DNA of 14,890 nucleotides from NCBI RefSeq assembly GCF_003334255.1, contig NZ_QOWU01000078.1; one strand, 5' to 3'. Below the pieces are notes generated by a model, which saw only the letters and a program-made list of their open reading frames with translations, was not told where the DNA came from and did no database searches. Positions 1 to 11,773 of this stretch are shown here, piece by piece; the stretch's first letter is position 1, and each line of letters starts with the position of its first letter. The DNA comes from Escherichia coli (GTDB lineage Bacteria; Pseudomonadota; Gammaproteobacteria; Enterobacterales; Enterobacteriaceae). The translations under genes and the position numbers were made by a program.

Positions 1-105
1 ACGCGAGGCATCGTCTTAACGAGGCACCGAGGCGTCGCATTCTTCAGATGGTTCAACCCTTAAGTTAGCGCTTATGGGACTTCCCCCCCTGATAATGCCT
101 GATAT

Positions 106-1650
106 TTACAGGTGTACTTCATCAATGTCTAACAATGACTTTTGAAGCACTTCAAAGACTGAACTATGGTCAAAGTCTTTGTTTTCTCGTGCAACTGAAA
201 TACCAGAGAAAGATTTACCATTCAATAAGCGTATAGTTATTTCTTGCTTGTAGTAGTCAAAAATCATCTCTTTGATAAATGACTTTATGGCAAGTTGTAG
301 TTTGATACGTCCCTCTACAGTTTTCCGGTCACTGTCTTGGATATCATTGTCTGACCTTAATGACTGGATAGCTTCAGCCTGTCTTAAATCCTTCTTCTTA
401 GATTCAAGTTCAACACGGTTGTTTGTTATTCTTTGGGCTAATGTGTCAAGGTCACCCAATCCTCTTTCTGCAAGGCTAATTAGGTTATTAATCCCTTTTT
501 CTAGTGATGTGATATCGGCTTTAAGCGTGGTAACAGAAATATTGTCACCATTACTCTTAAGGCTCAGATACTGAAGTGTGGGGAATACCTTTTGAATGAG
601 TATATCTTCAATCAATGAACGGTTAAATGCCTTAGAATTACAACGTCCAAGTTGACGATTACGACATTCAAGATAGCCTCTAGGGTAGCGTCCTTCTGGT
701 GTCTTCTTGGTATTACGCTGACGCAGTGTAGAACCACATTCTGCACACTTGCATATCCCTTTAAAGATATCAATAGAACTTGGTTGTCGTGAGGTTGGCT
801 TCTTGCCTTTGCCTTGACCTCTAATCATCTGTACGGCATGAAACTTTTCTTTTGAAATAGCAGGGGGGAAATAGTCACTGACTCCGTAAGCAACGCCAAT
901 TAGAGACTCCTTTAATAAAAGGTCACGTACTCTTGTAGGTGTCCAGCCTGTGTCTACCTTTTTATTCGTAATGGTGGGGATGTTTTCAAGATTTAAATCT
1001 CTGGCGATTGCATGTAGTGATTTTCCTGAAAGTTTTTCGTCAAAGATTCTATGAATTGTTTCTACGTGGTGAGGTATTAACGAAAATGATTTTCCGTCAG
1101 AATTGAGTTTTAACCATCCGGGGCAATTACCGGTTATCTTTGTTCCATCCTGTTCAAACTGTTGTCGTTTATGTGACCATACCTTTTTAATACGGTCAGA
1201 TTTAATAACAGACTCGTTATGGCTACGCTCTTGTAGGATAATCATTCTGATTAATGCGAGAGAATCATCAAGAGATTGGCGGTTATACGTTTCACCGTCG
1301 CTTAGAGTGACAACCGTAATACCTTGCTCAAGAATAGCCCTGATAGTTTCCTGTGCATGGCTGATTGACTGACGGCTTACACGGTCTAACGATTCCACCA
1401 GCAAGACAGAATCTGGCGGTATCAGACCTTGCTTAACAGCTTCAAGAAAAGCCCTGAGTGCTCCACCTTCTTTTAGATGGTCACCGTGAAAGGCTGAACG
1501 ACCTAAATCTTCAAAACTAAGAGATTCGTCTAGGATGTGGTCTGGATGGCTGGCTAACCAATCCTGTATGGCCTTACTCTGTCTTCGATGACTATCACCA
1601 AAAGCTTGTTTCGTTGACGAAAAGCGAATGTAACTGTAAACCTTCCTCAT
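106..1650 (-). CDS. Large serine recombinase (serine integrase; resolvase-type catalytic domain + recombinase domain + zinc ribbon + C-terminal coiled coil)
   Basis: 514-aa ORF. N-terminus YIRFSSTKQ fits the resolvase/invertase catalytic serine motif. A Cys cluster (CKCAECGS...YLECRNRQLGRCNS) fits the zinc-ribbon domain, and the C-terminus is heptad-rich and coiled-coil-like. An in-frame stop lies 6 codons upstream of the ATG, and there is no clear Shine-Dalgarno sequence. Confidence 0.85.
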   Translation of the reverse strand: MRKVYSYIRFSSTKQAFGDSHRRQSKAIQDWLASHPDHILDESLSFEDLGRSAFHGDHLKEGGALRAFLEAVKQGLIPPDSVLLVESLDRVSRQSISHAQETIRAILEQGITVVTLSDGETYNRQSLDDSLALIRMIILQERSHNESVIKSDRIKKVWSHKRQQFEQDGTKITGNCPGWLKLNSDGKSFSLIPHHVETIHRIFDEKLSGKSLHAIARDLNLENIPTITNKKVDTGWTPTRVRDLLLKESLIGVAYGVSDYFPPAISKEKFHAVQMIRGQGKGKKPTSRQPSSIDIFKGICKCAECGSTLRQRNTKKTPEGRYPRGYLECRNRQLGRCNSKAFNRSLIEDILIQKVFPTLQYLSLKSNGDNISVTTLKADITSLEKGINNLISLAERGLGDLDTLAQRITNNRVELESKKKDLRQAEAIQSLRSDNDIQDSDRKTVEGRIKLQLAIKSFIKEMIFDYYKQEITIRLLNGKSFSGISVARENKDFDHSSVFEVLQKSLLDIDEVHL

Positions 1651-1668
1651 CTGTATATTTATCCAGTA
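1649..1668. promoter_or_regulatory. Candidate LexA (SOS) box abutting the recombinase start codon
   Basis: The plus strand reads CTGTATATTTATCCAG (CTG-N10-CAG, AT-rich spacer), 13/16 identical to the dinB SOS box core. On the minus strand it reads TACTGGATAAATATACAG immediately followed by the ATG. Confidence 0.45.
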
Positions 1669-1704
1669 CTATAATGACTCTATGACCAGATTATAAGGGG
1701 TGTT

Positions 1705-1734
1705 TTAGGAAGTGAAAATCATGATTTTACGCAT
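1705..1734 (-). pseudogene. dinB: dinB (DNA polymerase IV) 5' end, truncated: 14 nt of dinB (ATGCGTAAAATCAT) fused to element DNA, giving a 9-codon ORF (MRKIMIFTS*)
   Basis: The minus strand reads GAGGTGAGCA-ATGCGTAAAATCAT, matching the recalled dinB ribosome-binding site and start (MRKI from MRKIIHVDMD...). The sequence diverges after codon 4 and hits TAA at codon 10. Confidence 0.7.
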
Positions 1735-1750
1735 TGCTCACCTCTCAACA

Positions 1751-1770
1751 CTGGTAAAGTATACAGTGAT
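1751..1770. promoter_or_regulatory. dinB: dinB promoter LexA box
   Basis: The minus strand reads CACTGTATACTTTACCAGTG, identical to the recalled dinB SOS operator, about 16 bp upstream of the dinB ATG at 1734. Confidence 0.8.
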
Positions 1771-1804
1771 TTCAGGGTTTGAGAAATGCGTAAAGATTCA
1801 GCAT

Positions 1805-2560
1805 TTAACGCGTTCGCTGCGAAAGCACCTGCTGCTTATCCAGCTTTTGCACCAGCGGCTGCACCACTTTATCCCCATGCTGACCAAAGTATTGATACAG
1901 CGTATCGGACGCACTTTTGGTCAGCACCATAATCTCAATGCGCCGGTTGCCCGCGCTTTGCGGATTTTTGGAATCCAGCAGCATCTGGTCCGCCATTGCG
2001 CTTACCTGCATCACTTTATCTTCCGGCATTCCGGCCTCTTCCAGCACCCGACGAGCCGAAAGCGCGCGGTCACCCGAAAGGTTCCAGTTGTTGTAGATAT
2101 TGTTTTTGTAGGCCATCGCATCGGTATGCCCGGTAATAATAATTTTATTATCGAGCGAGTCGAACACTGGCGCGAGCTCCACCAGCAGCGTTTTAAAGAA
2201 CGGCATAATCTTCGCGCTGCCGCGTTCAAACATATTGCGGTTCTGGTCGTCTTTAATCAGCACGCGTAATCCCTGGGGAACAATCTCCATCTCCAGATTC
2301 GCTTCCATATGCGCATCACGGGCAATGGTGTTGATACTGGTTGCCAGCTCACCAAGCTCGGTGGCGGATTTCTTCTTCAGCAGCGCCGTTTTCTCATTCA
2401 CATCACGCGCTTTTTTCTCCGTCTCTTCCGGCACCGCCACGGTGGCAGGTTTTGGCGGATGAGACGGGCTGATTTTATTTAACGGCGACAGCCCACCACC
2501 GTTAAAAATCGACTGCCCGTGCAGCGCGGCGATAATGCTTTCACGCTCGGATTTACTGAC
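1805..2560 (-). pseudogene. lafU: lafU remnant (MotB-like lateral flagellar motor protein, N-terminally truncated Flag-2 relic)
   Basis: The translation has a MotB/OmpA-like C-terminal domain (NWNLSGDRALSARRVLEE...RRIEIMVL) but lacks the N-terminal transmembrane helix. The six-frame ORF extends to 2695 only by reading antisense through lfhA. Position between lfhA and PdinB matches K-12. Confidence 0.75.
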
Positions 2561-4274
2561 GCTGTTGACAATCAACTTTATTGTCGTCACCAAAGGGGCC
2601 GAGCGTATTTCCGAGGTTTCTGCCCGCTTTACCTTAGACGCGATGCCCGGCAAACAGATGGCGATTGACGCCGATCTTAACGCCGGATTGATCAACCAGG
2701 CGCAGGCGCAAACCCGGCGTAAAGATGTTGCCAGCGAGGCCGATTTCTACGGCGCGATGGACGGGGCATCGAAGTTTGTGCGCGGGGACGCCATCGCCGG
2801 GATGATGATTCTGGCGATCAACCTGATCGGCGGCGTCTGTATCGGGATCTTCAAATACAACCTGAGCGCCGATGCTGCCTTCCAGCAGTATGTGCTGATG
2901 ACCATCGGCGACGGCCTGGTGGCGCAGATCCCTTCCCTGCTGCTCTCCACCGCGGCGGCGATTATCGTCACCCGCGTCAGCGACAACGGCGATATCGCCC
3001 ATGACGTGCGTAACCAGCTGCTGGCAAGCCCGTCGGTGCTCTACACCGCCACCGGGATTATGTTCGTGCTGGCGGTGGTACCGGGAATGCCGCACCTGCC
3101 GTTTTTGCTGTTCAGCGCCCTGCTTGGTTTTACCGGCTGGCGGATGAGCAAACAGCCGCTGGCGGCGGAGGCGGAAGAGAAAAGCCTCGAAACGCTGACC
3201 CGCACCATCACCGAAACCAGCGAGCAGCAGGTCAGTTGGGAAACCATTCCGCTGATCGAGCCTATCAGTTTAAGCCTCGGTTACAAACTGGTGGCGCTGG
3301 TGGACAAAGCACAGGGTAACCCGCTCACCCAGCGGATTCGCGGCGTGCGGCAGGTGATTTCTGACGGCAACGGCGTGCTGCTGCCGGAGATCCGCATTCG
3401 GGAAAACTTCCGCCTTAAGCCCAGTCAGTACGCCATTTTCATCAACGGCATAAAGGCTGATGAAGCGGATATTCCGGCGGATAAACTGATGGCCCTGCCC
3501 TCCAGCGAAACCTACGGCGAGATTGACGGCGTGCAGGGGAACGACCCGGCGTACGGGATGCCGGTCACCTGGATCCAGGCGGCGCAGAAAGCGAAGGCGC
3601 TGAATATGGGGTATCAGGTGATCGACAGCGCCAGCGTGATCGCTACCCATGTAAATAAGATTGTGCGCAGCTATATTCCTGATTTGTTTAACTATGATGA
3701 TATTACGCAGTTGCATAACCGTTTATCGTCGACGGCACCGCGTCTGGCGGAAGATTTGAGCGCGGCGCTCAATTACAGCCAGTTGCTGAAAGTGTACCGG
3801 GCGCTGCTGACCGAAGGCGTTTCCCTGCGCGATATCGTCACCATCGCCACCGTGCTGGTCGCCAGTAGCACGGTGACGAAAGATCATATTCTGCTGGCGG
3901 CCGATGTGCGCCTGGCATTGCGGCGCAGCATTACCCATCCGTTCGTTCGCAAGCAGGAGCTGACGGTGTATACGCTGAATAATGAGCTGGAAAATCTGCT
4001 GACCAACGTGGTGAATCAGGCGCAACAGGGCGGGAAAGTGATGCTCGACAGCGTGCCGGTCGATCCGAATATGCTCAACCAGTTCCAGAGTACGATGCCA
4101 CAGGTGAAAGAGCAGATGAAAGCGGCGGGGAAAGACCCGGTGCTGCTGGTGCCACCGCAGCTGCGCCCTTTGCTGGCGCGTTATGCAAGGTTGTTTGCGC
4201 CGGGGCTGCATGTGCTGTCGTATAACGAAGTGCCGGATGAGCTGGAGTTGAAGATTATGGGGGCGTTGATGTAA
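2535..4274 (+). pseudogene. lfhA: lfhA remnant (FlhA-family flagellar export apparatus protein, N-terminally truncated Flag-2 relic)
   Basis: 579-aa ORF with FlhA-family motifs (VVTKGAERISEVSARFTLDAMPGKQMAIDADLNAGLI) that begins inside the conserved transmembrane region, so about 100+ N-terminal residues are missing. Length matches the recalled K-12 lfhA fragment. Confidence 0.8.
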
Positions 4275-5920: not shown

Positions 5921-6097
5921 ACTCAATAATGGCTGGTCATGCTTTAATGTTGCAGTGTATCCCGGATCGTTTCTGAACAAACTTAATAAACCATTATTAT
6001 AAAATTAACATATATATTTCAGTTAATTATGTAAAAACATCCGTTTATTAAATTACTCATGGATTGTCGCTGTTGCTCATTTGAGCTACAATTCAAG

Positions 6098-6113
6098 CTG
6101 AATAAATATACAG
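6098..6113. promoter_or_regulatory. LexA box in the dinJ-yafQ promoter
   Basis: CTGAATAAATATACAG (CTG-N10-CAG, AT-rich spacer), about 17 bp upstream of the dinJ ATG. dinJ is a known damage-inducible gene. Confidence 0.7.
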
Positions 6114-6129
6114 CACAGGAGATACCCCA

Positions 6130-6390
6130 ATGGCTGCTAACGCGTTTGTTCGCGCCCGAATCGATGAAGATCTGAAGAATCAGGCAGCGGACGTACTGGC
6201 CGGGATGGGGCTGACCATCTCTGACCTGGTTCGCATAACCCTCACAAAGGTCGCGCGTGAAAAGGCATTGCCGTTTGATTTACACGAGCCTAATCAATTA
6301 ACCATTCAATCAATCAAAAACAGCGAAGCTGGCATTGATGTTCATAAGGCCAAAGACGCCGATGATTTATTTGATAAATTAGGAATTTAA
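6130..6390 (+). CDS. dinJ: Antitoxin DinJ (RelB/DinJ family)
   Basis: 86-aa ORF matching recalled DinJ (MAANAFVRARIDEDLKNQAADVLAGMGLTISDLVRI...). Its stop lies 2 nt from the yafQ start. Confidence 0.95.
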   Translation: MAANAFVRARIDEDLKNQAADVLAGMGLTISDLVRITLTKVAREKALPFDLHEPNQLTIQSIKNSEAGIDVHKAKDADDLFDKLGI

Positions 6391-6392
6391 AT

Positions 6393-6671
6393 ATGATTCA
6401 AAGGGATATTGAATACTCGGGACAATATTCAAAGGATGTAAAACTTGCACAAAAGCGTCATAAGGATATGAATAAATTGAAATATCTTATGACGCTTCTT
6501 ATCAATAATACTTTACCGCTTCCAGCTGTTTATAAAGACCACCCGCTGCAAGGTTCATGGAAAGGTTATCGCGATGCTCATGTCGAACCGGACTGGATCC
6601 TGATTTACAAACTTACCGATAAACTTTTACGATTTGAGAGAACTGGAACTCACGCGGCGCTCTTTGGGTAA
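6393..6671 (+). CDS. yafQ: Toxin YafQ (RelE/YafQ ribosome-dependent mRNA interferase)
   Basis: 92-aa ORF matching recalled YafQ (MIQRDIEYSGQYSKDVKLAQKRHKD...), in operon arrangement with dinJ. Confidence 0.95.
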   Translation: MIQRDIEYSGQYSKDVKLAQKRHKDMNKLKYLMTLLINNTLPLPAVYKDHPLQGSWKGYRDAHVEPDWILIYKLTDKLLRFERTGTHAALFG

Positions 6672-9328: not shown

Positions 9329-11773
9329 ATGATGATTTTGAGTATTCTCGCTACGGTTGTCCTGCTCGGCGCGTTGTTCTATCACCGCGTGAGCTTATTT
9401 ATCAGCAGTCTGATTTTGCTCGCCTGGACAGCCGCCCTCGGCGTTGCTGGTCTGTGGTCGGCGTGGGTACTGGTGCCTCTGGCCATTATCCTCGTGCCAT
9501 TTAACTTTGCGCCTATGCGTAAGTCGATGATTTCCGCGCCGGTATTTCGCGGTTTCCGTAAGGTGATGCCGCCGATGTCGCGCACTGAGAAAGAAGCGAT
9601 TGATGCGGGCACCACCTGGTGGGAGGGCGACTTGTTCCAGGGCAAGCCGGACTGGAAAAAGCTGCATAACTATCCGCAGCCGCGCCTGACCGCCGAAGAG
9701 CAAGCGTTTCTCGACGGCCCGGTAGAAGAAGCCTGCCGGATGGCGAATGATTTCCAGATCACCCATGAGCTGGCGGATCTGCCGCCGGAGTTGTGGGCGT
9801 ACCTTAAAGAGCATCGTTTCTTCGCGATGATCATCAAAAAAGAGTACGGCGGGCTGGAGTTCTCGGCTTATGCCCAGTCTCGCGTGCTGCAAAAACTCTC
9901 CGGCGTGAGCGGGATCCTGGCGATTACCGTCGGCGTGCCAAACTCATTAGGCCCGGGCGAACTGTTGCAACATTACGGCACTGACGAGCAGAAAGATCAC
10001 TATCTGCCGCGTCTGGCGCGTGGTCAGGAGATCCCCTGCTTTGCACTGACCAGCCCGGAAGCGGGTTCCGATGCGGGCGCGATTCCGGACACCGGGATTG
10101 TCTGCATGGGCGAATGGCAGGGCCAGCAGGTGCTGGGGATGCGTCTGACCTGGAACAAACGCTACATTACGCTGGCACCGATTGCGACCGTGCTTGGGCT
10201 GGCGTTTAAACTCTCCGACCCGGAAAAATTACTCGGCGGTGCAGAAGATTTAGGCATTACCTGTGCGCTGATCCCAACCACCACGCCGGGCGTGGAAATT
10301 GGTCGTCGCCACTTCCCGCTGAACGTACCGTTCCAGAACGGACCGACGCGCGGTAAAGATGTCTTCGTGCCGATCGATTACATCATCGGCGGGCCGAAAA
10401 TGGCCGGGCAAGGCTGGCGGATGCTGGTGGAGTGCCTCTCGGTAGGCCGCGGCATCACCCTGCCTTCCAACTCAACCGGCGGCGTGAAATCGGTAGCGCT
10501 GGCAACCGGCGCGTATGCTCACATTCGCCGTCAGTTCAAAATCTCTATTGGTAAGATGGAAGGGATTGAAGAGCCGCTGGCGCGTATTGCCGGTAATGCC
10601 TACGTGATGGATGCTGCGGCATCGCTGATTACCTACGGCATTATGCTCGGCGAAAAACCTGCCGTGCTGTCGGCTATCGTTAAGTATCACTGTACCCACC
10701 GCGGGCAGCAGTCGATTATTGATGCGATGGATATTACCGGCGGTAAAGGCATTATGCTCGGGCAAAGCAACTTCCTGGCGCGTGCTTACCAGGGCGCACC
10801 GATTGCCATCACCGTTGAAGGGGCTAACATTCTGACCCGCAGCATGATGATCTTCGGACAAGGAGCGATTCGTTGCCATCCGTACGTGCTGGAAGAGATG
10901 GAAGCGGCGAAGAACAATGACGTCAACGCGTTCGATAAACTGTTGTTCAAACATATCGGTCACGTCGGTAGCAACAAAGTTCGCAGCTTCTGGCTGGGCC
11001 TGACGCGCGGTTTAACCAGCAGCACGCCAACCGGCGATGCCACTAAACGCTACTATCAGCACCTGAACCGCCTGAGCGCCAACCTCGCCCTGCTTTCTGA
11101 TGTCTCGATGGCAGTGCTGGGCGGCAGCCTGAAACGTCGCGAGCGCATCTCGGCCCGTCTGGGGGATATTTTAAGCCAGCTCTACCTCGCCTCTGCCGTG
11201 CTGAAGCGTTATGACGACGAAGGCCGTAATGAAGCCGACCTGCCGCTGGTGCACTGGGGCGTACAAGATGCGCTGTATCAGGCTGAACAGGCGATGGATG
11301 ATTTACTGCAAAACTTCCCGAACCGCGTGGTTGCCGGGCTGCTGAATGTGGTGATCTTCCCGACCGGACGTCATTATCTGGCACCTTCTGACAAGCTGGA
11401 TCATAAAGTGGCGAAGATTTTACAAGTGCCGAACGCCACCCGTTCCCGCATTGGTCGCGGTCAGTACCTGACGCCGAGCGAGCATAATCCGGTTGGCTTG
11501 CTGGAAGAGGCGCTGGTGGATGTGATTGCCGCCGACCCAATTCATCAGCGGATCTGTAAAGAGCTGGGTAAAAACCTGCCGTTTACCCGTCTGGATGAAC
11601 TGGCGCACAACGCGCTGGTGAAGGGGCTGATTGATAAAGATGAAGCCGCTATTCTGGTGAAAGCTGAAGAAAGCCGTCTGCGCAGTATTAACGTTGATGA
11701 CTTTGATCCGGAAGAGCTGGCGACGAAGCCGGTAAAGTTGCCGGAGAAAGTGCGGAAAGTTGAAGCCGCGTAA
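9329..11773 (+). CDS. fadE: Acyl-CoA dehydrogenase FadE (beta-oxidation)
   Basis: The ORF 9251..11773 contains [24 protein letters not shown]... from codon 27 (814 aa). A Shine-Dalgarno sequence (AAGGGG) lies about 8 nt upstream of the ATG at 9329. An acyl-CoA dehydrogenase core follows the N-terminal membrane segment. Confidence 0.95.

Follow-up and report, generated by a model that had tools for sequence, protein, structure and literature searches.

The DNA analysed here, referred to throughout as the window, is a stretch of 14,890 nucleotides from an Escherichia coli contig (NZ_QOWU01000078.1, assembly GCF_003334255.1), in which a mobile element encoding a large serine recombinase (LSR) interrupts the first codons of dinB, the gene for DNA polymerase IV (Pol IV). 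The native dinB promoter and LexA box lie on the minus strand at 1749-1785, and include a promoter-like TTCTCA-16-TATACT identified in a consensus scan (1785-1758) and a LexA box identified in a motif scan (CTGTATACTTTACCAG, 1751-1766). They are followed by the first 14 nt of dinB (ATGCGTAAAATCAT, 1734-1721), and all of these features are intact where the first-pass annotation, which had been made from the sequence alone, had placed them. Past this point the orphaned dinB start is fused to element DNA and forms a short open reading frame (ORF), MRKIMIFTS* (minus strand, 1705-1734), which reads ATG CGT AAA ATC ATG ATT TTC ACT TCC TAA from 1734 to 1705; the frame therefore leaves dinB and stops after nine codons, as that annotation had read it. 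The LSR gene (106-1650, minus strand) is an intact ORF of 514 codons whose start lies 70 bp away from the junction and whose transcription runs into the element, again as first described. Because the LSR gene and the dinB promoter point the same way, the arrangement in the window, here called orientation I, aims the native SOS promoter at the recombinase gene.

When positions 1-2000 of the window were compared by megablast with 5,426 complete E. coli genomes, matches were returned from 5,422. In the genomes with an uninterrupted dinB (about 5,400 of the 5,426) the match begins only at 1721, and none of them carries the sequence to the left of that position. The DNA left of 1722, including the LSR gene, is present in just 26 genomes, and in 18 of these 26 carriers the match to the query extends up to 1722 only; several hundred draft assemblies are carriers as well. 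The element has a G+C content of 36-43% (38-43% for the DNA left of 1722) and its flanks approximately 52%; this low G+C content and its rarity indicate that it is an insertion and not a chance feature of the locus. An insertion at codon 5 had been proposed. The insertion is real, but its junction is better set at dinucleotide 1721-1722, where codon 4 ends and codon 5 begins.

Positions 1-75, at the left edge of the window, are not element cargo but the outer end of a copy of IS421 (IS4 family) that is not part of the element proper: identity to the insertion sequence (IS) stops at 75, and relatives of the element align from 76. Positions 1-75 have 8,423 matching places in 2,144 genomes, adjoining an annotated IS421 transposase gene. 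The possibility that they belong to a group II intron was rejected, as they are an IS421 end with no credible match in Rfam. The IS421 copy has been inserted into a G/C-run target (GGGACTTCCCCCCC) approximately 30 bp 3' of the LSR stop codon, in the short segment of element DNA (76-105) that was recognised by alignment to relatives. IS421 was found at this spot (window 1-89) in no complete E. coli genome of the collection, which therefore does not include the strain of the window.

The LSR contains the three domains expected of a serine recombinase of this type, as recognised by Pfam: Resolvase (PF00239, residues 4-163, 1.5e-13), Recombinase (PF07508, residues 193-276, 7.9e-13) and Zn_ribbon_recom (PF13408, residues 295-355, 1.3e-8), which bears out the initial assignment of the 106-1650 ORF. 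The catalytic motifs YIRFSSTKQ and DRVSR are present in its translation, and residues 356-514, the C-terminal part in which serine integrases have a coiled-coil motif that governs directionality, have no Pfam match. TUM9757 and 1218KP share one LSR protein accession, and the intact ORF is identical in many genomes and is indexed in 871 blocks of a large collection. The dinB LSR forms a separate 90% cluster. A tblastn search of 50,697 phage records identified YbcK-type proteins as its closest phage-borne relatives, with 34% identity over 94% of the protein. In IMG/VR just one fragment, 22% identical, was found, and no chain in the Protein Data Bank (PDB) matched the LSR at E<=0.001.

Alignment of both element junctions to an uninterrupted dinB defined the attachment (att) sites and the crossover dinucleotide. 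Read in the dinB sense, the empty site, attB, is GCGTAAAATC-AT-TCATGTGGAT. In orientation I, the left junction is ...AAAATC-AT-GATTTTCACTTCC... and the right junction is ...AAAGTGAAGATT-AT-TCATGTGG.... A second arrangement, orientation II, has the junctions ...AAAATC-AT-AATCTTCACTTTC... and ...GGAAGTGAAAATC-AT-TCATGTGG..., with the same crossover and the element inverted; window sequence matches genomes with the inverted element up to 1722. The junctions were exact and invariant in 17 of 17 loci examined, which cover the four junction types. Joining the element ends gives an inferred attP, AAAGTGAAGATT-AT-GATTTTCACTT, that is a pseudo-palindrome. Over a longer stretch it reads ...CACAGGGTGCATAAGAAAGTGAAGATT-AT-GATTTTCACTTCCTAAAACACCCCT..., with arms symmetric at 17 of 25 positions about the AT, and as a circle junction ...GTGAAGATT-AT-GATTTTCAC.... 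In the window, the P' half-site (AGGGGTGTTTTAGGAAGTGAAAATC) occupies 1696-1720 and shares these 17 of 25 symmetric positions with the other element end. A pseudo-palindromic attP is the usual anatomy for serine integrases (PMC3783163).

The palindromic AT at 1721-1722 is the sole sequence that attB shares with the inferred attP and with each of the four junction types. It is the only possible 2 bp crossover because, relative to attB, the base to the left of AT differs at the right junction of orientation I and the base to its right differs at the left junction. The same two differences exclude CA and TT as the core.

Both orientations of the element, which is 5.5-11 kb long in the carriers, occur in nature. 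In 1218KP (locus L001) the junction is of the window type, and an 11.2 kb element is joined at its far end to the body of dinB, followed by yafP. The layout is the same in APEC O18 and SCU-484, and the 3' portion of dinB that the first-pass annotation had predicted at the far end of the element is thus seen in three relatives that share the window's junction. In NC101 (L002), TUM9757 (L003) and 2018-11-3CC (L009), it is the LSR end that joins the dinB body, and the other end joins the dinB promoter. Orientation I was found in eight genomes and orientation II, using a junction-specific search, in 17. Ten further NCBI assemblies with an identical LSR protein are all in orientation II (10/10). 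SCU-484 (orientation I) and NC101 (orientation II) are particularly close: the flanks, compared over 12 and 16 kb, show 99.93% and 99.96% identity, the 5,558 bp elements are inverted relative to one another with 0 mismatches and one gap, and the two genomes have the same protein accessions throughout. Likewise, comparison of the window (I) with TUM9757 (II) over 1,647 nt covering the LSR gene and the element end revealed 0 mismatches and one gap. As near-identical copies are present in opposite orientations, the flip must be recent.

Serine integrases have been shown to lose orientation control when the core is made symmetric. With a symmetric core, the A118 integrase produced deletion in 52.5% and inversion in 47.5%, and the authors attributed directionality to the native asymmetric core alone (PMC3556126). 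phiBT1 sites with GC cores also recombined in antiparallel alignment (PMC3836970). By analogy, the dinB element appears to behave as predicted in theory for a natural symmetric core. A related element found at yecE, for which attP symmetry points to a TT core, was used as a control for orientation. With a synthetic 'inverted' yecE junction as the query, matches at >=80% cover were found in 0 of the approximately 198 genomes that carry the yecE LSR.

The insertion separates dinB from its native promoter in every carrier. Both element ends, though, carry GTGAARATY(AT) in frame with dinB, and in 15 of the 16 carrier loci, with both orientations represented, dinB is open for 350 codons from the element GTG. 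In the window, the replacement start is GTGAAAATCAT (1712-1722, plus strand); it serves orientation II and is unused in the window orientation, and the RefSeq dinB of NC101 begins at this GTG. Since a fresh in-frame start comes from either end of the element, dinB is not just inactivated by the insertion. The rebuilt protein begins MKIIHVDMD..., compared with MRKIIHVDMD... in native DinB, and a start at the element GTG retains Asp8, a catalytic residue of Pol IV. Rebuilt DinB may be made and active. In L016 (GCA_045344575.1), the dinB frame stops 38 codons after the element GTG. The annotation of dinB is inconsistent across carriers. RefSeq often begins the gene at Met9 (343 aa), as in L001, L003, L007, L008 and L009, with 1218KP, SCU-484 and APEC O18 among the genomes so annotated, while RefSeq in NC101 and the NCBI-assembly gene calls in the large collection begin it at the element GTG (350 aa).

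The recombinase end of the element also contains regulatory signals. A predicted LexA operator (ATCTGTATATTTATCCAGTA, CTGT-N8-CCAG) at 1649-1668 abuts the ATG of the LSR gene. It was scored with a position weight matrix (PWM) built from 17 E. coli LexA boxes, with those of dinB and dinJ left out, and reached 22.2 bits, compared with 21.3 bits for the median training site. The native dinB box scored 13.5 bits and the held-out dinJ box 21.2 bits, and shuffled windows contained 0.085 sites of >=14 bits per window. The predicted operator is kept as CTG-N10-CAG in a 95% variant and in APEC O18, and the PWM scan found no comparable box beside the LSR genes of the related elements at yecE and wrbA. 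A candidate box at the other element end, near the gene for a Dit-like protein, was rejected, as it scored 8.2 bits only. From its sequence, the operator at the LSR start is predicted to be bound by LexA. The dinJ box (AGCTGAATAAATATACAGCA, 6096-6115) that served as the held-out control is a strong one, located ahead of the dinJ-yafQ ORFs (6130-6390 and 6393-6671). dinJ-yafQ is a known SOS-regulated toxin-antitoxin pair.

The best promoter-like site of the region, TTTTCA-17-TATAAT (1690-1718, minus strand; 10 of 12 consensus matches), is the presumed LSR promoter, and its -35 lies inside the att arm. On the plus strand, a perfect TATAAT (1670-1675) just past the LexA box faces out of the element, and would be the promoter of dinB in orientation II. 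The use of these promoters by the LSR gene and dinB is a prediction. An 18 nt motif, ACACCCCTTATA(A/G)TCTGG, holds the -10 of the presumed LSR promoter (L001 21611-21628, equivalent to window 1686-1703). It recurs in inverted orientation near a small serine invertase gene within the element (L001 18659-18676), and may be a shared operator.

Together, these features suggest the following mechanism. Positions 76-1722 are the end that carries the recombinase gene in an integrative element of 5.5-11 kb, which the LSR would have inserted into dinB through conservative recombination, with crossover at AT where codons 4 and 5 meet. AT is self-complementary, so the att sites have no polarity, and the LSR would be able to integrate the element either way round or to invert it in place by acting on both junctions. 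Whichever end abuts the dinB body rebuilds a 350-codon dinB through GTG-AAR-ATY-AT, with the catalytic Asp retained. In orientation I, the LSR gene sits directly downstream of the native dinB SOS promoter and the dinB body would be fed from the cargo side. In orientation II, the commoner of the two, the outward-facing TATAAT and the LexA operator precede dinB. We consider it highly probable that the insertion was made by the LSR at a palindromic AT, that this accounts for both orientations, and that the element rebuilds the dinB start and places a LexA operator at the LSR gene.

Several observations weigh against this account. A search for a free or excised form, using the inferred attP (GTGAAGATTATGATTTTCAC) or a 302 nt version of it as the query, found none in IMG/VR, metagenome contigs, complete E. 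coli genomes or PLSDB plasmids. The single attP match in a metagenome was a chance one, sitting in an unrelated ORF without homology to the element. No candidate recombination directionality factor (RDF), a class of protein with no common sequence signature, was identified among the element genes; a canonical LSR lacking one is not expected to recombine attL with attR. For dinB, the spacing of the Shine-Dalgarno sequence ahead of the element GTG is unusual, and the Met9 start that RefSeq frequently calls would omit the catalytic Asp. The outward-facing TATAAT has no recognisable -35, and hence was missed by the consensus scan, and the LexA PWM was trained on an informally assembled set of boxes. 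In the yecE control, five genomes matched the inverted junction at 72% cover, because a normally oriented variant has a longer terminal inverted repeat. Finally, the element has a second serine recombinase that could do the flipping.

This second recombinase is a DNA invertase of 183-204 aa, encoded in both the long and the short forms of the element. If this small Hin/Gin/Mpi-like enzyme flips the element, the LSR would have made the original integration only, and the half-sites next to the core (GTGAAAATC) do loosely resemble A-rich invertase half-sites. However, the inversion breakpoints are, to the base, those of the integration crossover, and no hix/gix-like 26 bp site (<=3 mismatches to the consensus) was found at the ends or anywhere in the element, which together make this explanation improbable. 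The dinB-side half of each junction is, furthermore, unrelated to invertase sites, and a homologous invertase is present in the related elements at wrbA, with no flipped copies in the yecE control. If the LSR does the flipping, it need not act in place. The two orientations might instead reflect independent excision and re-integration, or separate acquisitions, with orientation set at random through the AT core. The att site requirements fit this route, as attP x attB needs the integrase alone and it is attL x attR that needs the directionality factor, and the same LSR allele accompanies different cargo variants in chromosomal backgrounds that also differ, a pattern that indicates horizontal spread. 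On the other hand, a free attP form is missing from every collection searched, and in SCU-484 and NC101 inversion is the sole difference, which a single recombination event would explain most simply. We regard the absence of in-place inversion as unlikely, though quite conceivable; it has the symmetric core and the LSR in common with the mechanism favoured above, from which it differs only in route.

An inert prophage remnant, with an inactive recombinase, old orientations, and rebuilt starts and a LexA box that are coincidences of half-site similarity, would account for several properties of the element. The tape-measure and Dit-like genes are the only structural genes left, a short form has lost most of the cargo, IS elements have been inserted into several copies, and any LSR would be expected to have B and P half-sites that resemble each other. 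But many genomes share an identical, intact LSR ORF, and opposite orientations with 0 mismatches in 5.5 kb point to a recent flip. Nor would random decay yield the same compact cargo in 570 genomes at three sites, or a LexA box with a score higher than that of the median true site and found in the dinB-targeting lineage alone. We find this explanation hard to credit, marginally more so than flipping by the invertase. Repeat-flanked inversions are also a known assembly problem, and the opposite orientations might be assembly errors or products of RecA-dependent recombination between inverted repeats. They were, however, seen in 25 independent complete assemblies from many laboratories and in the 10 further NCBI assemblies, and the terminal repeats, alike at 17 of 25 positions, offer too little for either homologous recombination or assembler confusion. 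An artefact or a RecA-mediated event is thus very improbable.

The element could be more than an insertion. It might be a naturally occurring serine-integrase cassette that is free of orientation and works as a heritable switch with two states, wired to the SOS response, a proposal that we make tentatively and consider doubtful. In state I, that of the window, the native LexA-controlled dinB promoter would drive the LSR gene, and Pol IV would be produced from the cargo side, where there is no good LexA box. In state II, Pol IV would come under the element's stronger LexA operator and the LSR gene would keep only an autoregulated promoter in the att arm. Were this so, DNA damage would trigger flipping or excision, and lineages would differ stably in the regulation of a mutagenic polymerase.

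The cargo was examined in relatives with complete elements. Using PHROGs, NCBIfam and precomputed Pfam assignments, we recognised a tape-measure protein (PF20155), a Dit-like protein (PF21821, annotated as 'baseplate'), an HNH endonuclease and the small serine invertase. The remainder consists of ORFans and a 1.6-1.9 kb stretch free of ORFs. NCBIfam returned only weak XisF, Mpi and tape-measure domain matches from the cargo, PADLOC found no defence systems, and an Rfam search of window 1-2000 and the whole element returned nothing credible. The cargo does not constitute a phage: it lacks complete modules for the head, tail, lysis and replication, and no close match was found in 50,697 phage records or IMG/VR. 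Hallmarks of the known phage satellites (P4-like, PICI, cfPICI and PLE), namely a primase/replicase, capsid-size redirection or capsid genes, an AlpA-type regulator and a tyrosine integrase, were not detected using PHROGs and NCBIfam, but most cargo proteins are ORFans. In the short form in NC101, most of the cargo has been lost. The idea that the small invertase inverts an internal segment was rejected, as the long-form elements compared are collinear.

A cargo module of approximately 10 kb (10454-19965 in L001, 5940-15735 in L005 and 6001-15506 in L006) is present in 570 of the 5,426 complete genomes, accompanied by different LSRs at dinB, yecE and wrbA. The sister elements, found at yecE in MS10495 and at wrbA in M9, have cargo that is 78-88% identical to that of the dinB element at the DNA level. 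Their LSRs are only approximately 38-39% identical to the dinB LSR, and are encoded at the opposite end of the cargo. From these sequence relationships, the modules look like an undescribed family of small mobile elements that is possibly satellite-like. Some yecE-type elements, including those in GN02350 and ARS-C301, have a terminal inverted repeat of approximately 86 nt, compared with pseudo-symmetric arms of approximately 25 nt in MS10495.

The ORF-free stretch is conserved (17110-18989 in L001, 12687-14264 in L005 and 12499-14395 in L006) and has no match in Rfam. Possible roles for it are an origin, a packaging site or a non-coding RNA, and it includes two 50 nt direct repeats that are 95 nt apart (17703-17752 and 17798-17847 in L001). 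Another direct repeat, of 71 nt and 93% identical, is located directly upstream of the Dit-like and tape-measure genes (11381-11451 and 13610-13680 in L001), and might act as a regulatory leader common to both genes.

On the right-hand side of the junction, the window consists of ordinary K-12-type chromosome that includes lafU, a Flag-2 deletion scar, rayT, yafL, dinJ-yafQ, dpaA, yafJ, lpcA and fadE. The chromosomal flank upstream of dinB holds lafU (1805-2695, minus strand), which was identified from the ORF list and by genome comparison. It overlaps a truncated flhA/lfhA remnant, and this region (1805-4274) is the K-12-type Flag-2 deletion scar. A full Flag-2 cluster in the window was considered and rejected on finding this deletion. 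Carriers 1218KP, NC101 and SCU-484 keep the complete Flag-2 lateral-flagella cluster, and the element is thus present in both backgrounds.

Elements with an LSR are already known to insert in host genes. What is new is the target, dinB, and a natural palindromic core for which both orientations are documented, as well as the rebuilding of the start codon by both ends and a LexA operator specific to the dinB-targeting lineage. The suggestion that dinB is a previously undescribed target stands, as a literature search found no description of dinB (Pol IV) as a serine-recombinase attachment site. dinB is not in a list of phage-disrupted E. coli genes (PMC3603311). The reported 'dinB' target of the integrative and conjugative element (ICE) Tn7740 in Enterococcus is a 525 bp E. 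faecium gene that, by its size, was taken to belong to the DinB superfamily and not to encode Pol IV (PMC12271512). Literature searches also found no description of a palindromic core with two orientations, two-end start rebuilding or a lineage-specific LexA operator, and no paper on the tape-measure/Dit cargo family, which about 10% of complete E. coli genomes carry.

The gene for the mutagenic SOS translesion polymerase Pol IV thus joins the attachment sites for mobile elements in E. coli. Carriers include the widely used strains NC101, NGF-1 and APEC O18, in which dinB is separated from its textbook promoter, and this bears on work on stress-induced mutagenesis and on typing or annotation that uses dinB. 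The element appears to be a natural example of a polarity-free serine integrase with a symmetric core, known so far from engineered att sites. It provides a natural setting in which to test how orientation is controlled, and perhaps a compact inversion module based on an integrase.

Among known systems, the dinB element is most readily compared with the serine integrases of phages (A118/LI, phiC31, Bxb1, phiBT1 and TP901-1), with which it shares the Resolvase, Recombinase and Zn ribbon domains, and a pseudo-palindromic attP that has only a 2 bp core in common with attB. Integration takes place inside a host gene, as for A118 in comK, and the integrase gene adjoins the att junction in both cases. 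The natural cores reported for A118 (GG; PMC3556126) and phiBT1 (GT; PMC3836970) are asymmetric and set polarity, whereas that of the dinB element is the symmetric AT, with both orientations found in nature. An asymmetric central dinucleotide is typical of serine integrases, though not strictly defining, and the dinB element lacks one. It further differs in that the sequence similarity of its LSR to the phage integrases is remote and the element is not a phage.

Of the phage-borne proteins, the YbcK-type LSRs of lambdoid coliphages and DLP12 are the most closely related, and they are found in the same host species. Their genes, however, are located mid-genome and have no link to dinB, and we know of no att site assigned to them. 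The sister elements at yecE and wrbA share the cargo module, including the ORF-free stretch and the small invertase, but have other target genes, and at yecE the core is apparently TT and no inverted copies were detected. Islands specific for dusA rebuild the 5' end of their target gene, use tyrosine integrases and are found in a single orientation. The dinB element resembles them in inserting into the first codons of a conserved gene and supplying a replacement start and upstream signals, but differs in that it can rebuild its target from both ends. Finally, the Hin, Gin, Cin and Pin segments are also found in two orientations and also involve a serine recombinase. In those systems, a small invertase acts on 26 bp hix/gix sites with an enhancer, whereas here a whole mobile element lies between the att junctions of an LSR.

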